Shown piece by piece: positions 1-36,312 of a DNA stretch of 36,312 nt. The stretch is from a virus (Duplodnaviria > Heunggongvirae > Uroviricota > Caudoviricetes). Position 1 is the first letter of the stretch. Every line of letters starts with the position of its first letter. A program made the translations under genes and the position numbers. The stretch lies in the IMG/VR virus record IMGVR_UViG_2534681604_000004; one strand, written 5' to 3'. A model generated the notes under the pieces. The model saw nothing but the letters and a program-made list of their open reading frames with translations, was not told the origin of the DNA and ran no database searches.

Positions 1-424
1 GCCGGGCAGTGACGTCATCGTCTGCGCGGAAATGGACGAACAGTGGGGATACGTCGGGGCTAAATCGCGCCAGCGCTGGCTGTTTTACGCGTATGACAGG
101 CTCCGGAAGACGGTTGTTGCGCACGTATTCGGTGAACGCACTATGGCGACGCTGGGGCGTCTTATGAGCCTGCTGTCACCCTTTGACGTGGTGATATGAA
201 TGACGGATGGCTGGCCGCTGTATGAATCCCGCCTGAAGGGAAAGCTGCACGTAATCAGCAAGCGATATACGCAGCGAATTGAGCGGCATAACCTGAATCT
301 GAGGCAGCACCTGGCACGGCTGGGACGGAAGTCGCTGTCGTTCTCAAAATCGGTGGAGCTGCATGACAAAGTCATCGGGCATTATCTGAACATAAAACAC
401 TATCAATAAGTTGGAGTCATTACC
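1..424 (+). mobile_element. IS1-family insertion sequence, partial copy (3' portion; terminal inverted repeat ends at 424)
   Basis: Sequence matches recalled IS1 3' half; encodes InsB C-terminal region and ends with GTTGGAGTCATTACC, the reverse complement of the IS1 terminal repeat GGTAATGACTCCAAC. Confidence 0.92.
200..409 (+). CDS. insB: IS1 InsB transposase C-terminal fragment ([36 protein letters not shown]...IKHYQ)
   Basis: Track ORF; recognisable InsB C-terminus; an in-frame TGA at 197-199 precedes the Met where the recalled reference has TGG (Trp). Confidence 0.8.
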
Positions 425-631
425 CAGGCATGTGTACGATATGCCCAACCCTGTTTTTCAGGGGAGGCGCAACGTTATGCGGGGTTATGAACTCCTGGAT
501 GCGTAGCCTCCAGACAGAAAAAACCCTCGCCACAACGTTGCATGGAGGCAACCAGCGAGGGCATTCCTTATGTCTGAACAACAAGAGGATAGCCGCAAGC
601 AGTTGCTGTTGCAAGTGTGCGGAGCTTCGTA

Positions 632-748
632 ATGACTCTTCAAAAAGCTTGCAAGTGGGTTGTGACCAACATCATTGTTCCTGTCATCATCGGAGCTTCA
701 AGTTCTGTGTTGGCATCAGTGATTGCCTCACTTCTCCACATTGCATAA
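632..748 (+). CDS. candidate small hydrophobic peptide (38 aa, single predicted TM helix), TAATG-coupled to a 20-aa upstream ORF at 570-632
   Basis: Own translation: MTLQKACKWVVTNIIVPVIIGASSSVLASVIASLLHIA; upstream mini-ORF has GAGGG 8 nt before its ATG; a hairpin plus T-run follows at 803-836. Confidence 0.25.
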   Translation: MTLQKACKWVVTNIIVPVIIGASSSVLASVIASLLHIA

Positions 749-802
749 CAACATTGAAGGGCGTTAGTTCGCAGTGTAACAGCAGCGCGTTGCGCCCGAA
801 CA

Positions 803-836
803 GGCCACAGGGTAAAACCTGTGGCCTTTTTCGTTT
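803..836 (+). terminator. rho-independent terminator-like hairpin (GGCCACAGG / CCTGTGGCC, then TTTTCGTTTT)
   Basis: 9-bp perfect stem, 6-nt loop, T-rich tail read directly. Confidence 0.55.
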
Positions 837-880
837 TAGCCAGCCACAAATCCACATTGAAAAACGCCTTATACAAAAAA

Positions 881-906
881 ACCTGCCAGCTAACTGGCAG
901 GTTTCT
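881..906. terminator. hairpin ACCTGCCAG / CTGGCAGGT flanked by an A-run (5') and TTCT (3'); possible bidirectional terminator
   Basis: 9-bp perfect stem with 4-nt loop; A7 run upstream gives a T-run on the minus strand. Confidence 0.4.
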
Positions 907-946
907 GAGCAGATCGACCAACCCGATCTGGATCGGACTGGAAAAA

Positions 947-963
947 TTTGCTCTAATAAATTT
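947..963 (+). promoter_or_regulatory. C1-repressor operator-like site upstream of kilA (TTTGCTCTAATAAATTT)
   Basis: 16/17 match to recalled P1 C1 operator consensus ATTGCTCTAATAAATTT; sits about 70 bp upstream of the kilA start. Confidence 0.6.
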
Positions 964-1032
964 CGTTTTCTAAGTGCAAAGAATCACCATTTCGAGCTGG
1001 TGATTGAAGGTTGATGCAAATTTGGAGAAAAA

Positions 1033-1833
1033 ATGCAACAAACATTCTATGCGGATATGAATATATCAAACCTTCATCAAAATGTCGATCCTTCAACCAC
1101 TCTGCCTGTTATTTGTGGTGTTGAAATTACGACCGACCGCGCTGGCCGTTACAACCTTAATGCTCTACACAGAGCGAGCGGACTCGGTGCCCATAAAGCG
1201 CCAGCTCAATGGCTAAGAACGCTGTCAGCCAAACAGCTCATCGAAGAGCTTGAAAAAGAAACTATGCAGAATTGCATAGTTTCGTTCGAAGGCCGTGGCG
1301 GCGGCACTTTTGCCCATGAATTGCTCGCTGTGGAGTACGCAGGCTGGATTTCTCCCGCGTTTCGGCTGAAGGTAAACCAGACATTTATCGACTATCGAGC
1401 CGGAAGATTACAACCTGCTATTCCGCAGAGTCTCCCTGAAGCTCTCCGTTTGGCTGCCGACCTGGCAGAGCAAAAGCAACGGCTGGAGCAAAAAATGCTG
1501 ATGGATGCACCTAAAGTCGAATTCGCCGAACGCGTTGCTACCGCCAGCGGGGTTCTAATCGGCAACTATGCCAAAGTGCTCGGCCTGGGCCAAAACTATC
1601 TCTTCACCTGGTTGCGTGATAACGGAATTCTGATCACAACCGGTGAACGCAGGAACGTCCCCAAACAAGAATACATATCTCGTGGGTATTTCACCCTTAA
1701 AGAAACCGTGATCGATACAAGCAACGGAAGCAGGATTTCTTTCACGACTCGTATAACCGGCAAAGGTCAGCAGTGGCTAATGAAGCGATTGCTTGATGCT
1801 GGTGTGCTGGTACCTGTCGCGGCTACGCGCTAA
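1033..1833 (+). CDS. kilA: KilA-like phage protein (KilA-N / antirepressor-type domain), 266 aa
   Basis: Track ORF with GGAGA RBS; position and length fit recalled P1 kilA ahead of repL; domain call is by recall, not search. Confidence 0.65.
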   Translation: MQQTFYADMNISNLHQNVDPSTTLPVICGVEITTDRAGRYNLNALHRASGLGAHKAPAQWLRTLSAKQLIEELEKETMQNCIVSFEGRGGGTFAHELLAVEYAGWISPAFRLKVNQTFIDYRAGRLQPAIPQSLPEALRLAADLAEQKQRLEQKMLMDAPKVEFAERVATASGVLIGNYAKVLGLGQNYLFTWLRDNGILITTGERRNVPKQEYISRGYFTLKETVIDTSNGSRISFTTRITGKGQQWLMKRLLDAGVLVPVAATR

Positions 1834-1862
1834 CAGACGTAGTAAGAACCACCAGCATTGTA

Positions 1863-2708
1863 ATGCTGGCTAAAGTCACTTTCCTGAGCTGTATAACGAT
1901 GAGCGATTTTACTTTTTCTGGCTATGAATTGGCCTGCTTTGTAACACACTCCGGTCTATCCCGTAGCGCCGGGCATATCCTGTCGCAATGTGCAAATCTC
2001 GCGGCAACAACCAGTGAATACTTCATTCACAAGCCTCACCGCCTGATCGCGGCAGAAACTGGTTATAGCCAATCAACCGTCGTTCGTGCATTCCGTGAAG
2101 CTGTAAACAAAGGAATCCTGTCTGTAGAGATTGTTATCGGCGATCACCGTGAACGTCGCGCTAACCTGTACCGGTTTACACCATCCTTTTTGGCCTTCGC
2201 ACAACAAGCCAAAAATGCGCTGATTGACAGCAAATTAAAGATCTCTTCAGCCGCAACCAAGGTTAAAGCTGTTCTCGCTAAGACATTGGCTTTATTTAAT
2301 TTTTTATCCACACCCCCATGTCAAAATGATACCCCCTCCCCCTGTCAGGATGACGTGGCAATAAAGAATAAGAAGTCACAAATTAAAAAAACAAAAAGAT
2401 CAGTTTCCGGCGGTACCGGAACGACCAGGCTCAAAAATTTGACTTCCTGGATCGCTGAGGCAAAAGCAAAGGCTGACAATCTGCGGTTATCCAAAAAACG
2501 CGCTCAAAAACATGAGTTCAAGCAGAAAGTAGAGGCGGCTGCGCGGAAATATGCTTACCTGAAGAACAAGCGTTCGCCTGATATTGGCGGGATATCAAAC
2601 TTCGATAATCTACCGCATTGCATGACGGTAAACGAAGCTCTTAATGCGGTTTTAGCCAAAAATAAAGATAACGAACAATGGGGTATACCGGCAGGATTCA
2701 GAGGGTGA
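1863..2708 (+). CDS. repL: RepL-like lytic replication protein, 281 aa
   Basis: Track ORF immediately downstream of kilA in the same orientation; length fits recalled P1 RepL. Confidence 0.65.
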   Translation: MLAKVTFLSCITMSDFTFSGYELACFVTHSGLSRSAGHILSQCANLAATTSEYFIHKPHRLIAAETGYSQSTVVRAFREAVNKGILSVEIVIGDHRERRANLYRFTPSFLAFAQQAKNALIDSKLKISSAATKVKAVLAKTLALFNFLSTPPCQNDTPSPCQDDVAIKNKKSQIKKTKRSVSGGTGTTRLKNLTSWIAEAKAKADNLRLSKKRAQKHEFKQKVEAAARKYAYLKNKRSPDIGGISNFDNLPHCMTVNEALNAVLAKNKDNEQWGIPAGFRG

Positions 2709-2758
2709 TAGATTGCTCTAATCTGGAGTCACCTGGCGTTTTCAGTTTGAGGTCGGAG

Positions 2759-3004
2759 ATGCAATCTGATTTTTTACAGTTAGCGATCGCTTTTGCAGGA
2801 TATGTTTGTATTGGCTTCTGTGTATACATGATCAGCCGAAAAATGCTTGTCGATATCGACCGCAAAGAACGAGCAGAGGAGATCTTAGTATGGATTTTCT
2901 TTTGCGCGGTCTGGCCATTAGGGATCATGTTTGCTGCAACATTTCTTCTGATGTGGATATTCACCCTTCCAGGTGATTTATATAGAAAAAAAGCCAGACA
3001 TTGA
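2759..3004 (+). CDS. small membrane protein (2 predicted TM helices), function unknown
   Basis: Internal ATG at 2759 preceded by GGAG; hydrophobic stretches AIAFAGYVCIGFCVYMI and IFFCAVWPLGIMFAATFLLMWIF. Confidence 0.4.
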   Translation: MQSDFLQLAIAFAGYVCIGFCVYMISRKMLVDIDRKERAEEILVWIFFCAVWPLGIMFAATFLLMWIFTLPGDLYRKKARH

Positions 3005-3127
3005 TACAATCGCTGCGGGTGCTTGAGGCTATCTGCTTCAGGCATTACCCGACAAGCAGATAGAAGAAAGCCCCAGATAACATTACGCGTCCTGCAAGAC
3101 GCTTAACATTAATCTGAGGCCATATCT

Positions 3128-3334
3128 ATGCTTAGCATACGTAGATTAGCCTCTTACCGACCAAAAGGTCAAGGAGAAGCAGGCTATGAAGCAGCAAAAA
3201 GCGATGTTAATCGCTCTGATCGTCATCTGTTTAACCGTCATTGTGACGGCATTGGTAACGAGGAAAGACCTCTGCGAGGTACGAATCCGAACCGGCCAGA
3301 CGGAGGTCACTGTCTTCACAGCCTACGAATCTGA
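3128..3334 (+). CDS. mok: mok-like overlapping reading frame of a hok/sok-type locus
   Basis: Track ORF that starts upstream of and overlaps the hok frame, as mok does in hok/sok. Confidence 0.45.
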   Translation: MLSIRRLASYRPKGQGEAGYEAAKSDVNRSDRHLFNRHCDGIGNEERPLRGTNPNRPDGGHCLHSLRI

Positions 3335-3341
3335 AAGGTAA
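3186..3341 (+). CDS. hok: Hok/Gef-family type I toxin, 51 aa
   Basis: Own translation MKQQKAMLIALIVICLTVIVTALVTRKDLCEVRIRTGQTEVTVFTAYESER, close to recalled Gef/HokC; GC hairpin GGCGGGGAGAGATCCCCGCC in the 3' UTR (3349-3368) in the position of a fold-back element. Confidence 0.85.
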   Translation: MKQQKAMLIALIVICLTVIVTALVTRKDLCEVRIRTGQTEVTVFTAYESER

Positions 3342-3413
3342 GAGACCTGGCGGGGAGAGATCCCCGCCACTCTTCGTGTGTCAGGTATCCTCAATGCACC
3401 CTTTCCTCTCCAA

Positions 3414-3440
3414 ATAAAAAAGCTCCCGAAGGAGCTTTAA
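3414..3440 (-). terminator. rho-independent terminator (AAAGCTCC CGAA GGAGCTTT; T-run on the minus strand)
   Basis: Perfect stem-loop followed on the minus strand by TTTTTATTT, immediately downstream of the minus-strand gene ending at 3458. Confidence 0.7.
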
Positions 3441-3457
3441 AATACAAGGGATGACTC

Positions 3458-3967
3458 TTAATCCCACTCAATCCAGTTGTAGACGATACGAAGTGACGGG
3501 CGCACAGCAGCAGTCACATCTTCGGTACTAAAGTCGATTGCATCACTGTAGATTTTGCAGTCCAACATTTCAATTGTTGTAGCAGCTTTTGTCACAGCGT
3601 TAACCCCAGAAGATTTGGATTCAGGGGTCGCAGCCATCGTGATATCAACATAGTCCTTCGCCGCAATGCGATCTTTAATGAACTGAAGAATATCGCCTTC
3701 GATAGTCTCCACGCACTGGACCTGGATTTCCCCAGAGTTTCGAATTGGTCCGTGCTGGTTGAACTTCACACCATTCGGACCATAGTCCTCCACATCCTCG
3801 CGAGTCATTTCAGGGATTTGCGACGTGCGAACCAGTACGTTGATATCTTCATAGCCTGCAAAAGTGAGCTGGAATTCAGAAGATACCAGTCGTTCGCCTT
3901 TGGCCGCGTTGGCAGTATAGCGGCCCTTAATAAATTTACGGTTTCCCTTAGTGTTATTGTGCCCCAT
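3458..3967 (-). CDS. phage virion protein, possibly tail-tube-like, 169 aa
   Basis: Track ORF in a tightly packed minus-strand structural operon; functional call is weak inference. Confidence 0.45.
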   Translation of the reverse strand: MGHNNTKGNRKFIKGRYTANAAKGERLVSSEFQLTFAGYEDINVLVRTSQIPEMTREDVEDYGPNGVKFNQHGPIRNSGEIQVQCVETIEGDILQFIKDRIAAKDYVDITMAATPESKSSGVNAVTKAATTIEMLDCKIYSDAIDFSTEDVTAAVRPSLRIVYNWIEWD

Positions 3968-3978
3968 ATAAAATCCTT

Positions 3979-4560
3979 TTACTGGAACGCCCGAACAATA
4001 TCGGAGCTGTTATATATCGAAGAACCGGTCAACTGGAGGTTGACGGTGTTTTTCAGGAAATGCCCATTGCTGTCCCTGGGCGCATCGAGATCGAAACTTA
4101 TGTCCTGGATAGCGACATCAATGATGTTGATCCGGCGACCAATGTTTAGCGTCACACGCTCCGGGATTCGACCACCAATACTGGCATCTTTAAGTTCCGG
4201 GCTAATCATCGCTGACAATGCGGCGATAGCTCCTGAAACCTCCGTGAATGGGTCAAACAAAGCGATGAAAGTTACTGGCAGCGTGAAAGTCGGCGGTGTT
4301 CCCCCTTCCCAAACCATTAAGCTGTTCCAACGAGCAACAGACGTTGTTTCAGTACCAACCTGCGCAAAACCACTGAAGGCACCAGCAACAGAACCCATGG
4401 ACATACCAGTAAAAGGTGCTTCCCAATTCTGGGCCATGTTCATTGCCGCTCCCTGGCTGATATATCCGGTAACCTGGTACTGAGAGTTCGTTAAAGTAAC
4501 TTTCAGATATGGCGATACACCGTCAGCCTGACTGTAAACTCCATAAGCTATAGGAGCCAT
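3979..4560 (-). CDS. phage structural protein, hypothetical, 193 aa
   Basis: Track ORF; 11-nt gap to the next gene in the same operon. Confidence 0.45.
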   Translation of the reverse strand: MAPIAYGVYSQADGVSPYLKVTLTNSQYQVTGYISQGAAMNMAQNWEAPFTGMSMGSVAGAFSGFAQVGTETTSVARWNSLMVWEGGTPPTFTLPVTFIALFDPFTEVSGAIAALSAMISPELKDASIGGRIPERVTLNIGRRINIIDVAIQDISFDLDAPRDSNGHFLKNTVNLQLTGSSIYNSSDIVRAFQ

Positions 4561-4595
4561 TCAAGTTAAAGGCCGGAGTTCTCCGGCCTCCTCCC

Positions 4596-5411
4596 TTAGC
4601 CAAGGCGCTTACGGCGCAGTTTCATTGACTTTTTGCGGGCAAGTTTTGCCGCGCCAGTCTGGGCTTTACGACGCGCTTTTTTCAGCGCCGATTTTTGAGC
4701 CGCAGTCAGACGTTTTTTACGCAGACGTTTACGGATGAGCTTGATCTCACCGTTACGAACAACCTTCTTAAATGCTTCAGTCAGCATTTCATCAGAAGTG
4801 CCAGCAACAACAAACGCTGCTTCCAGTTCGTCGCGGTCGTCGCTATCCAAACCAGCGATAGCGGAACCAACATCAGCAGCTGCGTCGTCGTCTTCATCGT
4901 CGGCCAATGCTTCGATCAGGTCATCATCTACACCGCATGCTGCGAGGAAGTCAGCAACATTTGCCCATGCTTCGTTATAGGCATCGTCCTGTTCTTCTGT
5001 AACTTCGGTATCGTCGTCGTCAGAGATACCAGCGATAGCCTGAACGAAACCATCAAGGGAGTCGAAAGTCAGATCACCGCTATCAGCCCAGGCGAAAACG
5101 GCGTCGGCCGTATCACTCAACGCATTCTGCATAGCACTTCGATTTGCAGCTTCCAGAATCATCTGGTGCGCCTGTTCGACGGTCCATTCTTTACCGTCTT
5201 TCCCTTCCAGAATTTGCTCAGGAGCCGGGGCAGATGGAACGTTATCGTTAGTCTGTGCCGCCGGTTCCGGATTATTATTAATAACCGGATCTGTTGGCGG
5301 TTCGGCGCTTGCTCGGGCAGACTCCATCAGCTGCACAGGATCAGAGTTCAAAGCGAAACGGGACAGTCCATTCCCCAAAAATGCCCCGGATTGAAAAAAG
5401 TTTTTGCTCAT
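4596..5411 (-). CDS. acidic protein with strongly basic C-terminal tail (scaffold-like or internal virion protein candidate), 271 aa
   Basis: Track ORF; D/E-rich body and C-terminus KLIRKRLRKKRL...KLRRKRLG. Confidence 0.5.
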   Translation of the reverse strand: MSKNFFQSGAFLGNGLSRFALNSDPVQLMESARASAEPPTDPVINNNPEPAAQTNDNVPSAPAPEQILEGKDGKEWTVEQAHQMILEAANRSAMQNALSDTADAVFAWADSGDLTFDSLDGFVQAIAGISDDDDTEVTEEQDDAYNEAWANVADFLAACGVDDDLIEALADDEDDDAAADVGSAIAGLDSDDRDELEAAFVVAGTSDEMLTEAFKKVVRNGEIKLIRKRLRKKRLTAAQKSALKKARRKAQTGAAKLARKKSMKLRRKRLG

Positions 5412-5420
5412 TGTATTCCC

Positions 5421-7010
5421 TTACTTAATAAGCAGCGGTACGCCCTGGATACGACGGGCTACGCCAGTCGGGCAGCAGGCCCAGACTACTTCCCATTTAT
5501 CGAATTCCGCCTGCGTAACTTTCAGCACATACGGTTCTGTACCGTCAGCATCAGGATCACGAGGAGCCACCAGAGCGCCGGAGGCGACAAAGCGATCTAA
5601 AAGTTTGGTCATCCCTTTAGTCAGGCCAGCCGCAGTAATACCGTCCGGGCTATGCTTCATCTGTCGGGCTAACTGGACAAAGAAACGGCTGATTGCATTC
5701 ATCAGGGATGGGACGTGCTGGAAGTGCAGATAGTTATCCTGCGTGCAGCAAGTTAAAGCATCGTCGATGATCATCTGGCCAGAGGTACCAACAGATACTT
5801 TATTGAGACGGCCCTTGACCATTGCCTCTTCGTCCGGGGTATCTTCCGGATACAGCGGTTGAATTGACGCACGAGCAATGACGGCACGTTCTTCACCAGC
5901 CGGTGAGTAATGCCAACCGCCGACATCAGAGTTTTTCTTGACGCCACGAGCTTTCGCCGCATACGCCGCGCCAGACAGACCGAAGACCACACGGGATTGG
6001 GTCCATTTGTCTTTGCAGGAGAACGGGAAGTGATAGACAGCACAGCTTACATAATCGGTACCAAGTAAACCGGTATCTTCAACAGCAGAGAGCGCTTCCG
6101 TGTACGTCAATGTCGGTTTGACATCAAAGAAGCCATCAATCAGGCGATCTGCACAGATTTTACCTAATGCGGTGATAGCCGCATTGTCATAGCAGCCCAG
6201 GCCAAGAACAGCGGTGTACATGTACGGCGCATTGTTCAGCACTTTCACCGCACGCAGGTACGCAGCGGTTGAGATTTTCGACTGATCACCGTTGGTACCA
6301 CCAGTGAACGCCAACGATTTTTTGTTTGTTACTTTCGCTGTAGAAATCAGATCTTCATTAACAACCGCGCGCAGATATTTAGAACGGGCTTCCAGAGCCG
6401 TAGGCAGATAACACAAGCGGCCCATGTCATCTTTCGCTTCTTCCGCCAAAGACACAGTGTGTGTCTCCAGGGTCGTTACCACACCGAGCGAAGTCGTCTG
6501 GGTCAGTTTTAAGAGGAAGCGTTCATTACCCGCGCTGTCCGCTGTTGCCGTTTCGATGGTTAACTCACGGGTAGGTGAAATACACGGATCACCATCATCA
6601 ACGTAGATAGCAAAGGCTTCGCCGCTATCAAGTTCAATTTCAGAACCGTATGGCAACGCACTGTAAGCCGGTTCGCCTGATTCATCGAACATAATAATCG
6701 GGAACTTCGCATCATCCGGAACAGCACGAACAACATAACCAGCGGTTTGCTGAATTGCTTCGTACACATGACGAATTGGTTCGAACTGTGAGCCGGAAGA
6801 CGGCTTCAGCGGTTCGCCGAGAACATCTTCGTAATTGGACTCAGTAACCGCAAGAACAGTAAACGGCTTGCCACGCGCAAATACGCCAATACCAGCCCAC
6901 AAGCTGCTATTTAATGCAACACCGGTAGATAACGTCGCATCGGCATTGATCGGGCTAACCGCGACGCCGGATGCATTACCTAATGACTGTTGAATTGAAT
7001 ATTGAGACAT
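5421..7010 (-). CDS. tail sheath-like protein, 529 aa
   Basis: Track ORF; size and position (between head-like gene and smaller tail genes) fit recalled P1 gene 22. Confidence 0.6.
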   Translation of the reverse strand: MSQYSIQQSLGNASGVAVSPINADATLSTGVALNSSLWAGIGVFARGKPFTVLAVTESNYEDVLGEPLKPSSGSQFEPIRHVYEAIQQTAGYVVRAVPDDAKFPIIMFDESGEPAYSALPYGSEIELDSGEAFAIYVDDGDPCISPTRELTIETATADSAGNERFLLKLTQTTSLGVVTTLETHTVSLAEEAKDDMGRLCYLPTALEARSKYLRAVVNEDLISTAKVTNKKSLAFTGGTNGDQSKISTAAYLRAVKVLNNAPYMYTAVLGLGCYDNAAITALGKICADRLIDGFFDVKPTLTYTEALSAVEDTGLLGTDYVSCAVYHFPFSCKDKWTQSRVVFGLSGAAYAAKARGVKKNSDVGGWHYSPAGEERAVIARASIQPLYPEDTPDEEAMVKGRLNKVSVGTSGQMIIDDALTCCTQDNYLHFQHVPSLMNAISRFFVQLARQMKHSPDGITAAGLTKGMTKLLDRFVASGALVAPRDPDADGTEPYVLKVTQAEFDKWEVVWACCPTGVARRIQGVPLLIK

Positions 7011-7070
7011 AACTTTCCCTGTTATGCGCCCCGCACGGGGGCGCTATGTTAAACGGAGAACTTCCCCTGA

Positions 7071-8798
7071 TTACTCAGAGTCACCGGCATCAATCGTGTC
7101 GCCGCTTATGAAGTTAAGCCCGCCTTTTTTGGCCATTGTCAGCGTTACACGAGTGAAGTAATCAGCGCCGTTGCGTGGGTGCATATCGTTGATAGCCGAA
7201 CCCCACAGCGTGGTACGGTTGACCAGCGCCGGAGTGGTCGGATGCTGGAACGGGATGGCCGGGACAGCATCACCAGTCACGAAGCCTGCTTTACCCGGAT
7301 TTTCATCACGGACGTAGCACAGCACATCCATCGAGCTGAACTGAATGTTCTCTGTCGTTAAGTTCTTACAAATACCAGCAGGTACTTCGTACACTTTCAC
7401 GTTACCGAACAGGGTACCGATGTAGTGAACATACGGAGTCTGGATATAGTCTTCGGCTGGCTGGAAGAAATCCTTCGGCAACTGTTTGAAGAAAGATGCT
7501 GCATCAGCACCAGCAAACATCCCCATCGCACCAGAAGATTTAACGCGCTCAATAATGTCGCGATATACAGTCTGGAATTTGCCACGAATGATGGTTGCCC
7601 ATACATCAAAGGACTGGTTAACCGGCAGAGCGATGTCAAAGGTGTCGGTCGCAAGAGTACGCCAGATCATAATGCGAAGACGCAGCATATCCTGTTCATG
7701 AGACAGGTATTCCTTCAGGGTGCGGAACTGTAGGGAACCCAGGTCCAGACCAAACTCACGCTGTGCTTCATACGCCGCCTGTACCGTGTGCTCAGCCGCG
7801 ATAACGAACTGGCTTGGGAACAGGGTGTATTTCTTCATTTCGTGGTTGATCAGCGGGATCAGCTCAGGAGCGGCTTCAATATTGATTTCCGTCTCAATTG
7901 CGATCTCAGTGCCTTTATCCGGCGCTTTGGAGAACGACAGGGCAATCTGACCAATGTTGTAGTTCAGAGAGCAGGTAACAGTGATTTGCTCACCAGCAGC
8001 ATTAGTAAACGAGTGAAGTAGGCTGCCGGAACCGTTATCAACAACAGACTTAATACGGTTAACGTAGATGTTAGTGCGACCTTTTCGGATTGGTACATTC
8101 TGGCCTTCGAAGTCTTCCATCTTGAAGGTTGCGGTTTTGCTGGTGCCATCGGAGCTTGCCACCAGCACATAGCGGCGGCGTAACTGGCTGTACACACCGA
8201 CGGATTGCATGTCCAGAACATCACCAGCAGCATAAGAACCAAAAGAGGAACCTGCCACGTTAAAGACTTCATAGATGTCGGACTGGTCACGCGTAACCGG
8301 AATGAAGGTACACGCATCAGCGGTAGCTGCCCCCAACTGAACAGGCAGGATCATCGCGAGGAATAAAGGCAGACGCATAACACCGTCAGAAACGCTCATC
8401 ATCTCTGCTGCGACGGATTCCAGCATCGCTTTATTAGTGGCATCCATGCTATTGCGGGTGGACTCAATCAGGCAGTTTTCCAGCGTCTGGTGGCAGGAGG
8501 CCAGAATTTCCGGACGCGGCATAGATTTATGTGCTGCGGCGTAGTCAGCCAGTGCACTTGCCCACGCGGTAGCAATTTGAGCGGTGGCATTATCAGAGAT
8601 ACCCGCAAAAATTGGGTCTTTACGTGCAGCTTCAAGGATAGATGCGGCACGCGCGGCATCATCTTTGATGAATTGGTTATCAGTACCGAACTGTGCTGTA
8701 CTTGCCCAGCCAAGAACGGCTTTAGAGCGTTTTGCGATATCTGCAATACGATTCTGGTATTCGCGTAAGCTACTCAATTTACTCTTCCTTAAACACAA
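7071..8798 (-). CDS. major head protein-like, 575 aa
   Basis: Track ORF adjacent to parS as recalled for P1 gene 23; assignment by synteny and size only. Confidence 0.55.
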   Translation of the reverse strand: MCLRKSKLSSLREYQNRIADIAKRSKAVLGWASTAQFGTDNQFIKDDAARAASILEAARKDPIFAGISDNATAQIATAWASALADYAAAHKSMPRPEILASCHQTLENCLIESTRNSMDATNKAMLESVAAEMMSVSDGVMRLPLFLAMILPVQLGAATADACTFIPVTRDQSDIYEVFNVAGSSFGSYAAGDVLDMQSVGVYSQLRRRYVLVASSDGTSKTATFKMEDFEGQNVPIRKGRTNIYVNRIKSVVDNGSGSLLHSFTNAAGEQITVTCSLNYNIGQIALSFSKAPDKGTEIAIETEINIEAAPELIPLINHEMKKYTLFPSQFVIAAEHTVQAAYEAQREFGLDLGSLQFRTLKEYLSHEQDMLRLRIMIWRTLATDTFDIALPVNQSFDVWATIIRGKFQTVYRDIIERVKSSGAMGMFAGADAASFFKQLPKDFFQPAEDYIQTPYVHYIGTLFGNVKVYEVPAGICKNLTTENIQFSSMDVLCYVRDENPGKAGFVTGDAVPAIPFQHPTTPALVNRTTLWGSAINDMHPRNGADYFTRVTLTMAKKGGLNFISGDTIDAGDSE

Positions 8799-8925
8799 GG
8801 CACTTGTGTGAATCCCTTTTCGGAAGAGATTTTATTGAAAGTCACTTGTTGACTTTCTCGTGACAAGCAATTTTTTTATTTTTTTCGGGAGGAGGGGAGG
8901 AGGGTAAAATCCAAGGTGAAATCGT

Positions 8926-8998
8926 GGCGATTTCACCTTGAAATTTTAGAGCAATTTACTTTAAAAACAGTCTGTTAATAGTGAAATTTGAATGGCGA
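8926..8998 (-). other. parS: parS centromere-like partition site
   Basis: GTGAAATCGTGGCGATTTCAC box array, central AT-rich IHF-like region and distal TGAAAT/TGGCGA boxes, directly downstream of parB; matches recalled P1 parS. Confidence 0.85.
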
Positions 8999-9002
8999 AA
9001 GT

Positions 9003-10004
9003 TTAAGGCTTCGGCTTTTTATCGAGGCTCTTTCTAAGGATATGCCCAATCATCCTGTCGAGTTCTTCCTGTAACTCTTTTGAGAGTCGATTAAACTCAT
9101 AAGAAAATGCTCGGCCTTTCACGCGCTTCCTTGCAAAGCGATCCTTATCCTCAAATTTCCATAATTCAGTAACTACGGACTTATCTTTAGAACCTTTATC
9201 CGTGAGTAGTGAGGCTTCCTTTGTTATCAAGCGCAGGATTTTATTTTTAACTTCATCTTCGGCCATTTCTTCAATGGATAAGATGTCGTTTATTTCCGGG
9301 GATATGTTTTGAATAAGCTGATCAAACTCTAAATTCTTGTTCCCCATTTCGTCGCCAACAGCACAAAGCGTTTTGTAGTCCGAAAAGGTTAATTCCGACT
9401 GCACAGGGAAAAGGGCGACTAATTCTTCCGGAGCACTCGCTGCCTGGAGAGCACGCGTGACCTTCGCCTGAGACAGCCCTTCCTTGGCTGCAATATCCTT
9501 CTGACTCATCCCATCATTTTTCATTCGCATCAAACGCAGACCTATTTCTCGAATGCTGTGCTGCAATGCTGTCTGAACGTCTTTCGCTAAATTTTGCGCT
9601 TCCTGAACGCTGATCTCCTGGTCCGTGACTAAAACCCGCAACCCTACGTTCTCTAAGATGGCAGAAGCTCGACGCCGGGAACCATCCAAAATTTCAATTT
9701 TCCCTGTAACCCGTCTAACACCTATTGCAGGGTAAAATTGCTGATGCTTAATAGTGCTTCGGATACTTTTTAATGATTTTGGCGTAAGAGATGCCTGGTC
9801 ACGCCCGTTGTTATGCTGATCAACAAAGGTATCGCTTTCTACCTGGTTCGGAGGTATTACCTCTTCAATAAATGTGGCCTGGCGACCAGTTGATAACTTG
9901 AATACCTGCTCGACTCGATCGCCAGAGGCTGAAGAACTATCAAATCCGCTTAATATTGAAGGATTAAGGGTTCGCCCAATTGTTGGTCTGTTTTTCTTTG
10001 ACAT
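9003..10004 (-). CDS. parB: ParB partition protein, 333 aa
   Basis: Track ORF; sequence recognised as P1-type ParB; followed by parS. Confidence 0.93.
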   Translation of the reverse strand: MSKKNRPTIGRTLNPSILSGFDSSSASGDRVEQVFKLSTGRQATFIEEVIPPNQVESDTFVDQHNNGRDQASLTPKSLKSIRSTIKHQQFYPAIGVRRVTGKIEILDGSRRRASAILENVGLRVLVTDQEISVQEAQNLAKDVQTALQHSIREIGLRLMRMKNDGMSQKDIAAKEGLSQAKVTRALQAASAPEELVALFPVQSELTFSDYKTLCAVGDEMGNKNLEFDQLIQNISPEINDILSIEEMAEDEVKNKILRLITKEASLLTDKGSKDKSVVTELWKFEDKDRFARKRVKGRAFSYEFNRLSKELQEELDRMIGHILRKSLDKKPKP

Positions 10005-10020
10005 GGGGGTTTCTTACTCC

Positions 10021-11217: not shown

Positions 11218-11385
11218 CGAAAGCCATCCTTTATGCTGTATTTTTGAATTTAATTAAAAATGCTGCATAAAATAATAATGTATGCGTAGATGCTTGTACA
11301 TAGCATTCTCTGCATGTTTGGTTCATTTTGCACGATTGAGAGTTACAAGGAGGGCACAAAAAAGCCCAGTTCAGGGGCATCAGTG

Positions 11386-12195: not shown

Positions 12196-12230
12196 ATCAA
12201 TACCACTGCTTGATGAGAACCGCGCAAATG

Positions 12231-13429: not shown

Positions 13430-13450
13430 CTGTGAATAGTCAGGCTCTAA

Positions 13451-13555: not shown

Positions 13556-13592
13556 CATCCCATTTCAGGCCAGAAATGGCGCGGCTTACAGC

Positions 13593-13663: not shown

Positions 13664-13706
13664 GTTGAATAAACCGGCCAACAAAGCCGGTTGGAAGGAA
13701 GCCATA

Positions 13707-30323: not shown

Positions 30324-30340
30324 AAAATTATTAGTGCAAT
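30324..30340 (-). promoter_or_regulatory. C1-operator-like site, reverse orientation (minus strand reads ATTGCACTAATAATTTT)
   Basis: 15/17 match to recalled consensus, in a divergent promoter region. Confidence 0.35.
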
Positions 30341-30397
30341 TTTGATTGTGAAATGTATCATTCTGCCCTTAAGTAGGTTCTTCACGAGGAAACAAAA

Positions 30398-30643
30398 TTG
30401 GCAGAACGTGTTGATGATGCAGAGCTGAGCATGAATCAGTTAGAAGCTCTCAAAGACATGGCCATCGATAACATCAGAAAGCAGGCACAGGTCGTGAGCC
30501 AGGTATTTACAGGGAAGTGTCGTTACTGCAATGAATCGATTGAATCAGGCATTTATTGTGACGCTGAATGTGCTCAATGGCACAGGGAAGAGCAGGCAGC
30601 AAAACAGCGTAAATATGGCATGCGACCGGCAGGATTTGACTGA
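30398..30643 (+). CDS. TraR/DksA-family C4 zinc-finger protein, 81 aa
   Basis: CRYCNESIESGIYCDAEC resembles the phage TraR-like zinc finger. Confidence 0.55.
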   Translation: MAERVDDAELSMNQLEALKDMAIDNIRKQAQVVSQVFTGKCRYCNESIESGIYCDAECAQWHREEQAAKQRKYGMRPAGFD

Positions 30644-30645
30644 TT

Positions 30646-31209
30646 ATGTTGCGCTTTACTGAGGAAGAGTTTCAGGCTTTTAGTGAGCGTCGAAATAAGG
30701 GGCGGTCCAGGCCAAAAACCAAAAAGGATCCATTCTTATCGCTTGCGCCGGTAAAAGAAGTTTCTCCACATGCGAAGGCACTTGCAGCACTGGCAAAGAA
30801 CCCAGACCTGCGCGACGGAAATTGCGAGCACTTCGAGCAGGTTTTCATTTTTGATTACTTCGAACGCAAGCACCCTGACATCTATGAGCTGTTGCATGCA
30901 ACGCCTAACGGAGGGAAACGTTCAAAAGCAACCGCCGGGAAAATGAAGGCTGAAGGGCAGAAAAAAGGTTATCCGGACATGAGTCTCGATAAAGCATGCG
31001 GTATTTATCACGGCATGCGAATTGAGCTTAAAGAACCAAATGGTAAAGCTCCGAAGAAAGAGCAGATCGCCTGGATGCGCAGGCTTAGAGAGGAAGGTTA
31101 CTACGTCGTTCTTGCGTATGGTGCAGAACAAGCGATAACCGCCATCCTGGAATACATGAGCCTTAAAAAGGGTGAGGCTATTGAGCATGTATTGAACAGT
31201 GACAAGTAG
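30646..31209 (+). CDS. VRR-NUC domain nuclease-like protein, 187 aa
   Basis: KKGYPDMSLD...GMRIELKEP...YYVVLAYG fits the VRR-NUC G-x-PD ... E-x-K pattern. Confidence 0.6.
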   Translation: MLRFTEEEFQAFSERRNKGRSRPKTKKDPFLSLAPVKEVSPHAKALAALAKNPDLRDGNCEHFEQVFIFDYFERKHPDIYELLHATPNGGKRSKATAGKMKAEGQKKGYPDMSLDKACGIYHGMRIELKEPNGKAPKKEQIAWMRRLREEGYYVVLAYGAEQAITAILEYMSLKKGEAIEHVLNSDK

Positions 31210-31387
31210 TTGTACACTACGTGAAATAATAAATTAATTAGTGCATATGTGTTCTTTGATACAGCGCACATTAACATCGGGAGAATAATCGTGTCATCCA
31301 AGGCTAATTATGAATCGCTGGCATCGATCATGCCGCGTAATGAACAGGAAGCAGATGCTGTAGTGGACCCGGTAATCGCTGAAATGA

Positions 31388-32050
31388 ATGCTCGCCTGGA
31401 GGCTGAATTTGCAGCTGAGAATGAACATACCACCCAGGGCGACTAGGACTGTTTTTTGTGTCGGTAGCGGTCCGTCACTCACTCGTGAGGACTGTGCTGC
31501 TATAGAAAAAACTGGCTGTTCAATCATCGCGGTTAACAATTCCTGGCAGATGTTCGATGACATTTATGCCTTATACGCCGGTGATTTGTCATGGTGGAAG
31601 CAATACGGATCCACCATACCGGGAGGGAGATTCCGCAAAGTGACAGCCAACCTGGCGGCGGCGAAATCATTTTCGTTGGAGTACAGGCGATATTGTGGAC
31701 CGGCGGAAGGGGTAAATAGCGGCGCGCAGGCTATCAGTCTGGCGGCTGAATCAGGGGCTGAAGTAGTGGTATTAGTCGGCTATGACTGTTCTCTGCAAAA
31801 CGGCCTTCATTGGCATGGCGCGCACCCTCAAGCACTACGGAATCCAACGCAGGTGTCTATTTCAAAATGGCAACAGCAGTTCCTGGATACCCGCAAAAAA
31901 CACGCAGATTTACATATTTTGAATGCAAGTAGGAGCAGTGCAATTCAATGTTTCCCAAGAATAAATTTAGAGGCAGTGATCGCGTTATTATCGTCGGCAG
32001 TGGCCCAAGCGCCGCAAACTTTGTTGCGCCGCGCGGAGTGCCGATTATAG
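31388..32050 (+). CDS. Rossmann-like protein with GSGPS motif (paralog A), 220 aa
   Basis: CVGSGPSL ... IIAVNNSW ... NSGAQAISLA ... VVLVGYD; paralogous to the next ORF. Confidence 0.55.
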   Translation: MLAWRLNLQLRMNIPPRATRTVFCVGSGPSLTREDCAAIEKTGCSIIAVNNSWQMFDDIYALYAGDLSWWKQYGSTIPGGRFRKVTANLAAAKSFSLEYRRYCGPAEGVNSGAQAISLAAESGAEVVVLVGYDCSLQNGLHWHGAHPQALRNPTQVSISKWQQQFLDTRKKHADLHILNASRSSAIQCFPRINLEAVIALLSSAVAQAPQTLLRRAECRL

Positions 32051-32574
32051 CGGTCAATGGGGCCATCGACTGGCTGAACCGCGCTTCTTATTTTTTCACA
32101 CTTGATCCATCGCCAGACAATATGCGGCGCGTTGGTCGTGGCCGCCGTCGCCGTGGTGTTTGTTATTGCATGGCACTACCCGATGTTAAAGAACGTGAAG
32201 TCAGAGATGGCGTTCTGTGCTTCCGTCGTGTGGCTGAACGCGGCACAGAGCCAAAAAATACGAATTCTCCCGAGTGGTGGGCGTGGCGCTGGTCCGCACA
32301 TTTCGGCCTTTGCGAAGATGAGAATGAAATTGCCAGCGGCAATAGTGCATATGGTGCTCTGAACCTGGCTTTCCATATCGGATTCAAACATGTCGCCCTG
32401 GTGGGCGTTGACGCTACACAAGAACCACGCGTTCACTCCGGCGGCACGCCAAAAAATCTAAGTCACCTGCCTTTGTTATTCCAGTCTGCGCGTGAACGGA
32501 TTGACGTTGTTTCATGCGGGGAAATGGGAGGTATTCCGCAGATGACTCTTAAAGAATGGCTGAAGAATACATGA
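31948..32574 (+). CDS. Rossmann-like protein with GSGPS motif (paralog B), 208 aa
   Basis: IVGSGPSA ... IIAVNGA ... [10 protein letters not shown] ... ALVGVD; stop overlaps the ppp start (ATGATG). Confidence 0.55.
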
Positions 32575-33248
32575 TGGCACCCACAATTTATCACCGTATC
32601 GACGGTACCAAATACAGGAATGTCTGGGTTGTTGGTGATCTGCATGGTTGCTACACCAGACTGATGTCCGAACTCCATCGTGTGGATTTTGACCCGGCGC
32701 AGGATTTACTGATATCGGTCGGCGACCTTATCGATCGCGGTACTGAAAATGTCGAATGTCTGGAACTATTGCAGATGCCCTGGTTCAGGGCAGTGATGGG
32801 GAACCATGAGCGGCTGATGATTGATGCGTTAAGTCCTGATGGCAACGTGAATAACTGGCTAATGAATGGCGGACAATGGTTCTTCATGCTGGACACTGAT
32901 CAGGAAATATTAGCCAGGGCGCTGGTGGAGCTGGTAAAGCGTCTGCCCTATATCATTGAGTTGAACACCGGGCAAGAAACTATCGTTATAGCCCATGCCG
33001 ACTATCCGGATAATGAATACCAATTCGGTAAGGAGGTGCCGCTTTTCAACGTTGTCTGGGCGCGCGAGCGTATCAGTGATTCGATGGATGATATTGGTGG
33101 CGAAATTTCGGGCGCAGATCGTTTTATCTTTGGTCACACTCCGGTGAAAAGCCCGAAGACATTCTGGAATCAGCATTATATAGACACTGGTGCCGTATTT
33201 TGCGGAAACCTGACATTGATGAAAGTGAAAGGTGATGGTGCAGCATGA
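32571..33248 (+). CDS. ppp: Ser/Thr protein phosphatase, lambda-PPase / PrpA family, about 225 aa
   Basis: GDLHGCY, GDLIDRG, GNHE and near-collinear similarity to recalled lambda phosphatase. Confidence 0.9.
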
Positions 33249-33946
33249 AGATTGCTTTAGTTCTTCGCTCTGGTGGTGACTATTACGCTTCCGATGTGCA
33301 GTGGCTGGTTAATCAACTGCCAAAAGGCTATGAAATTATTTGCCTGACAGACCTGAAGCGTTTACATGTACCTAGCGTCAAAGTTGTCCCATTGATCAAC
33401 CAGTGGCAAAAGTGCCGTGGCTGGTGGGCGAAAATCGAGTTGTTCCGACCGGATATAACCGATGATCTGTTCTATCTGGATTTGGACACGGTTATTGCCG
33501 GTGATATACGCCCAATCCTTGAGAATCCACCAACCAGCTTCACCATGCTTAGGGATTTTTACCATCCACAATATCGTGGTAGCGGTGCCCTGTGGATACC
33601 AAATAGTGTAAAAGCGCATATCTGGAGTGCATTCTGGCAAGATCCGGAAGGTTGGATTGCTCGTTGTGTTACTACTGAATGCTGGGGTGATCAGGGGTTT
33701 TTGCGGAAGGTTATGGGTGATGATACACCAGCATTTCAGGATCTGTATCCGGGATGGTTTGTAAGTTACAAGGCCGATGTTGTGAAACCTGGTTCGAAAT
33801 ATGCGAGCGCGCGTTACTCCAGGGGGAATGGGGCATTACCAAAAGACTGCCGAATAATCTTTTTTCACGGCAAACCGCGACCTCGCGAAGTGTCAGAGGA
33901 TTGGCTTCCCCTTATCAGCTCATTTTTTGAGCGAGAATCAGAATAA
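33245..33946 (+). CDS. hypothetical protein with DxD-like motif ([11 protein letters not shown]), 233 aa
   Basis: ATG overlaps the ppp stop (ATGA). Confidence 0.5.
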
Positions 33947-33947
33947 T

Positions 33948-33964
33948 ATTGCTCTAATAATTCC
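33948..33964 (+). promoter_or_regulatory. C1-operator-like site (ATTGCTCTAATAATTCC)
   Basis: 13/17 match (first 13 positions) to recalled consensus; paired with an inverted copy 37 bp away. Confidence 0.5.
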
Positions 33965-33972
33965 ATATTTTT

Positions 33973-34000
33973 AAAACGTGATGTACACTCATCACGTTTT
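33973..34000. terminator. bidirectional terminator hairpin (AAAACGTGATG TACACT CATCACGTTTT) flanked by inverted operator-like sites
   Basis: 11-bp perfect stem with A/T runs. Confidence 0.6.
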
Positions 34001-34013
34001 TTATTAGAGCAAT
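33997..34013 (-). promoter_or_regulatory. C1-operator-like site, inverted copy (TTATTAGAGCAAT on plus strand)
   Basis: Reverse complement ATTGCTCTAATAAAAAA. Confidence 0.5.
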
Positions 34014-34027
34014 CTACAAGGTGCACT

Positions 34028-34246
34028 ATGTGGCCATTCCGACGGAAATATCACTACTGGCTGATCGCCTTTGTTACGCCGTCCGGCGATATCAGGCATG
34101 TCATCACCAGGTATCGCAACAAGAGACTCACCTTAGCCAGAATTTTACAGGCTGCCATAGGTGAGGGACTGGATACAAATTGCGTAGTCCTTCCTCCTTC
34201 ATACTTAGGAAAAATGACCGAAGCACAAGCTAATACGGAACTTTGA
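34028..34246 (+). CDS. small hypothetical protein, 72 aa
   Basis: Track ORF immediately downstream of the operator pair. Confidence 0.4.
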   Translation: MWPFRRKYHYWLIAFVTPSGDIRHVITRYRNKRLTLARILQAAIGEGLDTNCVVLPPSYLGKMTEAQANTEL

Positions 34247-34247
34247 A

Positions 34248-35510
34248 ATGAGCACTTCAGCACAAAACCAATCAATCGAAAATGTATCTATCCCTGACGT
34301 CCTGAATGCCGGTATCCCGGCCATTATCCAGAACATCCGGGCCGCGCAACGCCGCGTTAGTTGTGATGACCTCACAGCACGTTTTTTTGATAATGCGGTT
34401 CAGTCAGCGGAGATGCTTCACGCACAGCTTATTGATGTTTATAACGCAGAAGCTGATAGCCATAACTCCCTGGTAGATGCAGCTGAAAATATGCAGTTGG
34501 ATCTCGGTCTGAAGGGTAAAGAAATTGAAGAGCTTCAGCTGGAAATTGAACATTTGAAACGCCAGCAACAGGACGCGATCGACGATGCGACGCATGACGC
34601 CAACCAGCGTGCTGATAATGCCGAACGTATAAGCATTGAGCTGGAAACAAAACTCAATGAAATGACCGCGATGGTTGAACTGCGGAACTCACAGATTTCA
34701 ACGCTAAAATCTCAATATAAAGAGATCATGAAACTTGATCCTTTTAACCTTGAGAAACGCTATAACAAAGCTAAAAGCGAGCGACAGGAACTGCGTAAGC
34801 AGGTCGCCGATCTTAACCAACAGCTCAAAAAAACTATTAAAGATGCAAGCGAAGCGCGCGTGGCATTTGCTAATAAAAAAGCAGAGGTTACCGCGCTGGT
34901 TAATGAGAATGCCAAATTTGCGACGCTCAAGAAGGAAATGTATGGCATTACTGAGCGCCGTTTCCCTGCAAGCAAACTTCATCCGACGTTAGGGCAAATC
35001 TCCTTCTTCCCGCGCCTCCTGGCTTATGGGATCTCATCGCCTAAAGAGTTCAATAACGAGCGTCCTTATATCGTTTCTAAGCTGGACTTTGCTTATCAGT
35101 TCTGCTGCGACATGGGCTATGCCATTGATATCCGAATCAACGAATGGTTGATGCCAAACTTCCAGCCGTTGGCCATTTTCCGCGAGTTCCAGCCGGAAGG
35201 TTGGGTAGAGTTCTTCCATGAAATGATCTGTAAAGAGATGGAAAGCCGCCGCCCGGAACTGGTCCGCCGTGTCGAGTGGGCGCAAGAGGTTATGTTGGCA
35301 GATGCAGAGCTACCGTTCGAACCGGAATTCATTGATGAACTGGCCAATAAAGGGCTGCATAGCCTATTTGATGTAGTTACCCGCCGTCATGAGCAGTTGG
35401 TTGTTGAATTGGGTTTAGAAGAAACTGCGGCAAGAAGACTTCTCGATGTTTGCTATGCACGTAGCGATGCATGGGAAAAAGAGAACGGCGGTACTATTTA
35501 CGTTCGCTGA
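34248..35510 (+). CDS. coiled-coil protein with conserved-looking C-terminal globular domain, 420 aa
   Basis: Track ORF; central heptad-like region (residues about 80-220). Confidence 0.55.
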   Translation: MSTSAQNQSIENVSIPDVLNAGIPAIIQNIRAAQRRVSCDDLTARFFDNAVQSAEMLHAQLIDVYNAEADSHNSLVDAAENMQLDLGLKGKEIEELQLEIEHLKRQQQDAIDDATHDANQRADNAERISIELETKLNEMTAMVELRNSQISTLKSQYKEIMKLDPFNLEKRYNKAKSERQELRKQVADLNQQLKKTIKDASEARVAFANKKAEVTALVNENAKFATLKKEMYGITERRFPASKLHPTLGQISFFPRLLAYGISSPKEFNNERPYIVSKLDFAYQFCCDMGYAIDIRINEWLMPNFQPLAIFREFQPEGWVEFFHEMICKEMESRRPELVRRVEWAQEVMLADAELPFEPEFIDELANKGLHSLFDVVTRRHEQLVVELGLEETAARRLLDVCYARSDAWEKENGGTIYVR

Positions 35511-35530
35511 TAGTTACAGTGTCACTTTTA

Positions 35531-35565
35531 ATGCTGGTGGAGTGCGTCCCACCAGCATTTTTTTC
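35531..35565 (+). terminator. rho-independent terminator (GCTGGTGG AGTGCGTC CCACCAGC then ATTTTTTT)
   Basis: Stem-loop plus T-run. Confidence 0.7.
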
Positions 35566-35583
35566 GTCCAATGAGGAGGGCAT

Positions 35584-35868
35584 TTGAGTATTTTCAACCA
35601 ACACGCACACCATGAACGTCCGTATATCGTCATAGTTGATATTGATGGAACAATATCAGAGGCAACTGAAGACAGACTGCATTTGCTTCCGCCACCAGGT
35701 AAAGGTGCATTAACAAAGGACTGGAACGAGTTTAATCTCGCCTGTGACACTGATACTCCCATAACTCCAGTTATTGATATTGTGCGCCAGTTGTCCAGCA
35801 TTTACACGCTCTGGTTTGTAACCGGGCGCTGTGAGATAGCCAGGGATAAAACACGAGCCTGGTTGCGT
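35584..35868 (+). pseudogene. HAD-superfamily phosphatase-like gene, 3' end truncated by IS1 insertion
   Basis: TTG start with GAGGAGGG RBS; motif I VIVDIDGTI; reading frame runs straight into the IS1 terminal repeat at 35869. Confidence 0.6.
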
Positions 35869-36312
35869 GGTAATGACTCCAACTTATTGATAGTGTTTTA
35901 TGTTCAGATAATGCCCGATGACTTTGTCATGCAGCTCCACCGATTTTGAGAACGACAGCGACTTCCGTCCCAGCCGTGCCAGGTGCTGCCTCAGATTCAG
36001 GTTATGCCGCTCAATTCGCTGCGTATATCGCTTGCTGATTACGTGCAGCTTTCCCTTCAGGCGGGATTCATACAGCGGCCAGCCATCCGTCATTCATATC
36101 ACCACGTCAAAGGGTGACAGCAGGCTCATAAGACGCCCCAGCGTCGCCATAGTGCGTTCACCGAATACGTGCGCAACAACCGTCTTCCGGAGCCTGTCAT
36201 ACGCGTAAAACAGCCAGCGCTGGCGCGATTTAGCCCCGACGTATCCCCACTGTTCGTCCATTTCCGCGCAGACGATGACGTCACTGCCCGGCTGTATGCG
36301 CGAGGTTACCGA
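35869..36312 (-). mobile_element. IS1-family insertion sequence, partial copy, inverted relative to the copy at 1-424
   Basis: Begins with GGTAATGACTCCAACTTATTGATAGTG; reverse complement is identical to window positions 1-424 wherever the two overlap. Confidence 0.92.
35884..36093 (-). CDS. insB: IS1 InsB transposase C-terminal fragment
   Basis: Track ORF identical in protein sequence to 200-409. Confidence 0.8.

Follow-up and report, generated by a model that had tools for sequence, protein, structure and literature searches.

IS1 copies with a nonsense codon in insB at both ends of a P1-like phage-plasmid contig probably mark two separate, old rearrangement junctions

IS1 (IS1A/IS1B type) is a 768-bp insertion sequence (IS) with imperfect terminal inverted repeats of roughly 23 bp; its insA-insB' frames, joined by a -1 frameshift, encode the transposase, and its simple insertions are flanked by direct target duplications of 8-9 bp. 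Classical composite transposons of IS1 include Tn9, which is carried by P1Cm. In this system (IS1-cat-IS1), an IS1 copy at the isaA/isaB site of the P1 genome serves as the entry point for IS1-flanked cargo. Translocatable units of IS26 likewise consist of cargo plus one IS copy placed beside existing copies, with nested deletions and without new target duplications, in a reaction catalysed by Tnp26. Finally, the IS1B, IS1C, IS1D and IS1F copies of Escherichia coli K-12 have intact ends, do not move by themselves and are mobile in trans; their impairment is due to as yet undefined missense or regulatory differences (PMC12903888; PMC12428005). Here we describe a stretch of 36,312 nucleotides (nt) of viral DNA (IMG/VR record IMGVR_UViG_2534681604_000004, hereafter the window), in which a P1-like phage-plasmid backbone of 35,444 bp lies between two inverted, partial IS1 copies. 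The left copy ends upstream of kilA (junction K) and the right copy interrupts a HAD_PNKP gene (junction H).

We consider the following account, taken as a whole, to be likely. The source of the window is a roughly 100-kb P1-like phage-plasmid, and the assembler halted inside an IS1 at both ends. Both junctions are genuine and predate the source plasmid, the two arms being separate IS1 copies at two old rearrangement junctions. At junction K, IS1 replaced the immI region (c4/icd/ant) and abuts an intact kilA control region. At junction H, IS1 cut HAD_PNKP at codon 95, and in relatives it replaces about 9 kb of accessory genes with yddE-nar. All of this belongs to categories already known, namely IS1, IS-mediated deletion and cargo capture, Tn9-like units and contig breaks at IS copies: the "bracketed segment" would be a draft-assembly contig ending in transposase-dead IS1 copies, and no new type of element. 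In comparison with Tn9 on P1Cm, the cargo is different (a phytase-like gene, between direct repeats), the entry points lie upstream of kilA and in HAD_PNKP, and the copies of the window are inverted, not direct. In comparison with IS26, the IS1 transposase would here be inactivated, and we assume RecA-dependent recombination by the host. Unlike the K-12 copies, those of the window carry an explicit nonsense codon. IS1 copies in Escherichia P1-like phage-plasmids would then mark both the loss of phage genes (the immI antirepressor module and a small accessory block) and the entry of cargo (a chromosomal nitrate-reductase operon and the phytase-like gene), which provides context for annotating and closing these plasmids, or for asking whether such elements remain inducible phages.

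A repeat finder returned one long inverted repeat, between positions 1-424 and 35869-36292 (424 nt, 100% complementary, 35,444 nt apart). A perfect inverted repeat of 424 nt within 36 kb is not due to chance. The right arm extends 20 nt deeper into IS1, to 36312. When mapped on the full 768-bp copies of relatives, the left arm corresponds to IS1 nt 345-768 and the right arm to IS1 nt 325-768. Both inward ends are the end formed by the right inverted repeat (IRR), ...AAGTTGGAGTCATTACC, with which the left arm finishes at 424; the right arm begins with its reverse complement at 35869. A preliminary description, made from the sequence alone, had stated that the two arms are identical wherever they overlap and share the same terminal repeat at their inward ends, and both statements are borne out. 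Since only 424-444 nt of each copy are visible, the term "identical copies" holds for that stretch alone. IS1 copies of the plasmids pRHB38-C01_2 and pEC17CM13_2 match the left arm at 100%, and an intact IS1B differs from it at one position. Full 768-bp copies in relatives, with both the left inverted repeat (IRL) and the IRR, are identical to the arms over the shared part. In the source itself, IS1 nt 1-436 are supplied by the neighbouring contig, so that one full copy is split across two contigs. The arms thus resemble IS1 of the IS1A/IS1B type (99.8% over 424-444 nt, same IRR, insB frame and PF03400 domain). They differ from it in that Trp98 of InsB is replaced by TGA, which interrupts the transposase frame, and, as seen in relatives, in that no target duplications flank the junctions.

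The sole difference between the arms and the intact IS1B copy on pEC17CM13_2 is a G>A change at IS1 nt 543 (window 199 and 36094), which in both arms turns Trp98 of InsB from TGG into TGA, in the context FDVVI-W-MTDGW. The preliminary description had noticed the TGA in both copies and given TGG as the reference codon; the stop is indeed read in each arm, and the intact copy on pEC17CM13_2 does read TGG. With Trp98 restored, InsB matches PF03400 (DDE_Tnp_IS1; E = 2e-78) over residues 37-167. The stop at residue 98 falls within this domain, so the transposase frame is not intact and a self-made transposase is very unlikely. In relatives, gene callers break insB into open reading frames (ORFs) of 97 and 69 aa, as in L012 (L numbers designate the relative loci compared; L012 is AP027926.1, 1,326,170-1,346,535, and L024 is the source scaffold GL870861.1). 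PGAP marks identical copies as "internal stop" pseudogenes, and a "programmed frameshift" is annotated in pEC17CM13_2.

The catalytic residues of IS1 reportedly form a DD(24)E motif, an assignment attributed to Ohta et al. in 2002. By counting residues against this motif, we take the first Asp (EMDEQW) to lie before the stop, and the second Asp (MTD) and the Glu (RIER) after it. insA and the frameshift region themselves lie outside the window. A frameshifted InsAB' product would, on this count, retain only the zinc finger, the helix-turn-helix and the first Asp. Loss of transposase activity is thus predicted for both copies, which could move only with transposase from another IS1. Read-through of the UGA by tRNA-Trp would restore the Trp but, combined with the rare frameshift, would be expected to give a very small yield. 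IS1 transposase prefers to act in cis, and abundant enzyme moves immobile IS1 copies and miniIS1 in trans (PMC12903888; PMC12428005). Because such trans-supplied transposase can move immobile copies, "non-autonomous", the term used in the preliminary description together with the predicted truncation, appears to be the right one.

An exact match of the KilA protein placed the window, as a single contig, in scaffold GL870861.1 (GCA_000190495.1; 103,224 bp). Window 1-11833 corresponds to 2987-14819 of the scaffold, with 100% identity. A gap of 657 N (scaffold 2330-2986), located inside an IS1, directly precedes the first nucleotide of the window. The contig before the gap holds IS1 nt 1-436 and therefore overlaps the window, which starts at IS1 nt 345, by 92 nt; because the flanking contigs overlap, the gap is an artefact that scaffolding introduced at a repeat. 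The left boundary of the window is set by IS1, and the right one, 444 nt into the inverted copy, very probably reflects an assembly break of this type as well. Since the window is a contig whose left end follows a gap inside IS1, the "bracketing" of the segment results largely from assemblers cutting at repeats. Of the claim that identical IS1 copies bracket the segment, the identity of the elements as IS1, their inverted orientation and, over the visible part, their identity to each other stand, whereas the bracketing is largely an effect of contig ends. The same IS1-bounded block nevertheless appears to recur in other isolates: contigs beginning at the same IS1 edge are present in other, independent short-read assemblies.

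These observations raise the question of whether pooled IS1 reads built both ends, in which case one junction, or one of the two TGA codons, may be absent in the source. The gap inside IS1 with its 92-nt overlap would be in keeping with such an artefact, as would the start of the scaffold itself, which lies inside IS1 in a low-quality, indel-bearing end, and the fact that contigs ending in IS1 are typical among the short-read assemblies seen. However, unique flanks pass straight into IS1 at both ends of the window, and a third IS1 copy on the same scaffold also carries the TGA. One of the other drafts has a contig of 35,554 nt starting from the same IS1 edge, which is exactly 35,444 + 2 x 55 nt (only its left end was read). 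Moreover, both TGA junctions are found in independent closed or long assemblies. We therefore regard the artefact as unlikely. Since the closed or long assemblies show the TGA-bearing IS1 at each site separately, wholesale mis-assembly is unlikely as well. A collapse of repeats may have contributed to the perfect match between the two source arms, but is unlikely to account for the existence of the two junctions.

Between the arms, the genes are arranged in the order kilA, repL, hok/sok, structural genes, parB/parA, repA, rdgC, dmt, tRNAs, ban (dnaB), structural genes of tail/baseplate type and HAD_PNKP. The segment shares 97-98% identity with P1, P7, RCS47 and many P1-like plasmids, is collinear with the first three, and is nearly identical to plasmids of E. 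fergusonii. Only 5 of 18,894 nt differ between window 17419-36312 (body and right arm) and pRHB38-C01_2. A scan with a consensus for the P1 C1 operator gave seven C1-operator-like matches with at most 3 mismatches, versus 0.14 expected in the window. Gene set and order, Pfam domains and C1-operator-like sites are thus those of a P1-like (Punavirus-type) phage-plasmid.

At junction K, a spacer of 608 bp separates IS1 from kilA. In an uninterrupted relative, the end of ant lies 30 nt upstream of the position equivalent to window 425; the preliminary description had rightly placed the IS1 copy 608 bp upstream of kilA, where ant/immI genes would be expected. No C4 RNA was found in the window. Its absence, together with the native spacer, fits the loss of immI. 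Junction K is also present in pEC17CM13_2, in NZ_CP104510.1 and in IMG/VR contigs. The 97.6-kb contig JASJUP010000002.1, whose identity to window 1-11833 is 100%, has it too, with IS1(TGA) flanked by the tail-gene side and kilA. In CDDITL010000003.1, junction K occurs alongside an intact HAD gene. The 60-nt tail-side flank of the kilA-site IS1 was sought in L009, L010 and L005 in order to size the immI deletion, and was found in none of the three. A 194-aa ORF immediately inward of the left junction (430-1014) was rejected as spurious; PGAP annotates no gene there in pEC17CM13_2.

At junction H, the HAD reading frame runs on for 26 codons into IS1, up to a stop at 35947-35949. Intact homologues have 168 aa and match PF25109 (HAD_PNKP, polynucleotide kinase-phosphatase-type), in agreement with the earlier claim that a HAD-like gene is truncated after codon 95. 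None of the relative DNA examined contained the 3' half of the gene. The E. fergusonii plasmids NZ_CP057105.1 and NZ_CP053046.1 match the final 2,113 nt of the window at 100%, and in pRHB38-C01_2 the IS1 at junction H is the only one of the plasmid. Beyond this IS1, closed plasmids carry yddE (PhzF family), narV/W/Y/(Z) and narU, followed by ISKpn26 and phd-doc. The chromosomal yddE-narVWYZ-narU block stands where ordinary P1-like plasmids carry about 9 kb of small genes, from HAD_PNKP to phd. The arrangement was met in two settings. In L005 (33638-44223), the yddE-nar operon is carried as plasmid cargo and ends at ISKpn26 beside phd-doc. In L012, which belongs to a 4.69-Mb chromosome record, P1-like genes are joined via the junction-H IS1 to yddE-narVWYZ-narU. 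The existence of both chromosomal and plasmid arrangements suggests that IS1 mediated an integration and that excision was imprecise.

Intramolecular rearrangements driven by IS1 are classical, and were reportedly described by Turlan and Chandler in 1995. Two identical inverted copies, each with its IRR toward the segment, have the geometry of a duplicative inversion, in which one IS1(TGA) would have transposed replicatively into the other site with transposase supplied in trans, flipping the 35.4-kb segment. Such an event would put the reverse complement of CAGGCATGT, and then ant, outside the right copy. It would also agree with the mainly replicative mode of IS1 transposition and with the fact that it can be driven in trans (PMC12428005, PMC12903888). 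However, each junction is found alone elsewhere with an outer partner of its own (at K the tail-gene side, at H yddE), which would not be expected had one given rise to the other, and neither is flanked by a target duplication in any relative. In addition, junction K is also found with an intact TGG IS1, in L007 and NZ_CP104510.1. Junction K therefore predates the TGA allele or is independent of it and, since K and H each occur alone, neither junction needs the other. Duplicative inversion is an improbable origin of the pair.

The preliminary description had proposed to look for 9-bp target duplications. None was found at any full IS1 copy in the P1-like relatives examined, all full copies being tabulated; the outer flanks of the source copies lie outside the window. 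The junction copies are therefore marks of rearrangement or deletion, and not simple insertions. The flanks of these IS1 copies form a restricted set. The IRR is followed by K, by H or by a phytase-like unit, of which it is always the same end; next to the IRL stand the tail-gene side, yddE, pptA or the opposite end of this unit. The phytase-like unit consists of a PF13449 gene (esterase) between direct IS1 copies, and occupies three or more different positions in P1-like plasmids. It is located inside the resident IS1 at K in NZ_CP104510.1, pEC17CM13_2 and the source, inside the resident IS1 at H in L013 and L015-L017, and within dmt in another plasmid (L057). Its orientation is constant, with the same end beside the IRR, and its lengths are nested (2362, 2175 and 1550 nt), the unit being trimmed from the IRL side.

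From these patterns in the sequence, we propose that defective IS1 copies provide movable stretches of homology, at which RecA-type recombination and deletion take place. The phytase-like unit with one IS1 would be excised as a circle between direct repeats and could re-enter any resident IS1, and IS1-adjacent deletions would then trim the neighbouring DNA. The TGA allele would spread with the exchange, and the identity of the arms would result from homologous recombination or gene conversion rather than from recent transposition. It is also plausible that inverted copies of 768 bp would flip the 35.4-kb segment by RecA-dependent inversion, which would be neutral for gene content. Several points weigh against our account of the junctions and their IS1 copies. 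Homologous exchange is deduced from patterns and not observed, and the outer flank and history of the right copy in the source are deduced from relatives only. No single record with both junctions was found in PLSDB, complete E. coli genomes or IMG/VR. Transposition driven in trans, with adjacent deletions afterwards, could likewise erase target duplications. Finally, the consensus at the ends of draft contigs may borrow reads from other IS1 copies, which weakens the case for an exact identity of the arms in the source.

Two IS1 copies flanking a large segment, together with the mobility of miniIS1 in trans, also bring to mind a composite transposon, in which transposase supplied in trans would act on the two outer IRL ends of the 36-kb IS1-bounded block. 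However, the segment contains the replication and partition core of the plasmid itself and follows the standard P1 map. All searches showed the block within a P1-like backbone only, and no flanking duplication supports its movement. We consider a composite transposon extremely unlikely, and retain the account of two separate rearrangement junctions.

The distribution of the TGA allele was followed using the 424-nt arm. Among 5,426 complete E. coli genomes, only pEC17CM13_2 has an exact match; in PLSDB, six plasmids do (five from E. fergusonii and one from E. coli), all at junction H. TGA copies with a further mismatch would score 99.8% and escape this exact-match count. The other matches listed in the two collections are at 99.8%, with one mismatch; in the subset of copies that were read directly, this mismatch proved to be nt 543. 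Both alleles are found at both junctions. At K, TGG is present in L007 and NZ_CP104510.1, and TGA in pEC17CM13_2, L022, L023 and the source; at H, TGG is present in CP137858.1 and L015, and TGA in pRHB38-C01_2 and many others. The source scaffold has at least three TGA-bearing IS1 copies. Replicons with at least two such copies share the allele at Trp98, TGG in CP104510 and L015, and TGA in pEC17CM13_2, L013, L016, L017, L022 and the source. The TGA is mostly associated with an IS1A-like 5' half (nt 262A/298A/301T/304C), and in the outer copy of pEC17CM13_2 with an IS1B-like 5' half. The presence of the TGA on two different 5' halves indicates exchange among IS1 copies.

Two further IS1 backgrounds have TAG at codon 98, through a G>A change at nt 542 (L042-L051, e.g. 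CP078557.1; L062; L064). The first is an IS1 subfamily about 9% divergent, with at least 8 copies on a 4.73-Mb chromosome; the second is a consensus-type IS1 on plasmid JQ314407.1, at about 10125 (L062). As the look-ups selected stops at exactly codon 98, this recurrence may reflect ascertainment bias, and we treat the recurrence of codon-98 nonsense in other IS1 lineages as a loose thread to be given little weight. In the index of the assembly collection, 12,267 blocks contain the 69-aa ORF whose start is the ATG adjoining the stop. This ORF was rejected as a marker of the TGA allele: since the divergent TAG subfamily encodes the identical 69-aa protein, the 12,267 blocks do not measure this allele. 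One could imagine that a stop at codon 98 followed by ATG defines a functional "split" or regulatory class of IS1, with a two-piece transposase made by termination-reinitiation, or with a truncated product (zinc finger, helix-turn-helix and first Asp) selected as an inhibitor of transposition. We find it very hard to credit such a class over mere decay.

Table 1. Coordinates of features in the window and, in the last line, of the phytase-like unit in the loci compared
Feature	Position	Strand	Remark
Left IS1 arm	1..424	+	3' two-thirds of insB plus IRR, cut at contig start
TGA for InsB Trp98, IS1 nt 541-543	197..199	+	ATG (M99) directly after
IRR of left IS1, inward-facing	402..424	+	ATCAATAAGTTGGAGTCATTACC; end of the 768-bp element in full copies
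P1-like backbone, 35,444 bp	425..35868	+	kilA to N-terminus of HAD_PNKP
Native kilA upstream region	425..1032	+	collinear from 425 with uninterrupted plasmids
Terminator-like hairpin and T-run	802-837	+	terminator scan
C1-operator-like site in kilA spacer	947-963	+	operator scan
kilA, first gene past left IS1	1033..1833	+	KilA-N PF04383 and ANT PF03374 (Pfam)
C1-operator-like sites	947-963, 15902-15918, 20447-20474, 30324-30340, 33948-34013		scan with operator consensus
HAD_PNKP 5' part, first 95 of 168 codons	35584..35868	+	cut by right IS1
Right IS1 arm	35869..36312	-	inverted relative to left arm; inward IRR at 35869-35891; cut at contig end
TGA for InsB Trp98, right arm	36094..36096	-	read in sequence
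Phytase-like unit	L011 2527-6424; L001 2-3087; L013 7800-11510; L057 1198-4852; L024 1-3410		no target duplications

Several features of the backbone were noted in addition. The Dmt methyltransferase (17169-20456, + strand; 1,095 aa) shows Hint_2, LAGLIDADG_3 and Intein_splicing matches at residues 77-418, which precede the main C5-methylase match (533-747) and a D12 adenine-methylase domain. This insertion looks like an intein with a homing endonuclease, to judge from its domain matches; the Dmt of P1 is presumably about 340 aa shorter. Two of the C1-operator-like sites form an overlapping inverted pair at the dmt stop (20447-20474). Just downstream of repL, a match to the Rfam sok RNA (111.7 bits; 3017-3191, + strand) points to a module of hok/sok type, and window 3155-3415, in the hok/sok area, is absent from pEC17CM13_2. 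ARAGORN predicts a tRNA-Ser(tga) at 21311-21397 and a tRNA-Met(cat) at 22733-22808, both on the + strand, of which only the tRNA-Met is confirmed at the Rfam gathering threshold. Finally, a gene for a T5orf172/GIY-YIG-type nuclease (11386-12195, - strand), annotated as a GIY-YIG nuclease in relatives, is located between parA and repA, and is possibly a homing-endonuclease insertion in the plasmid maintenance region.

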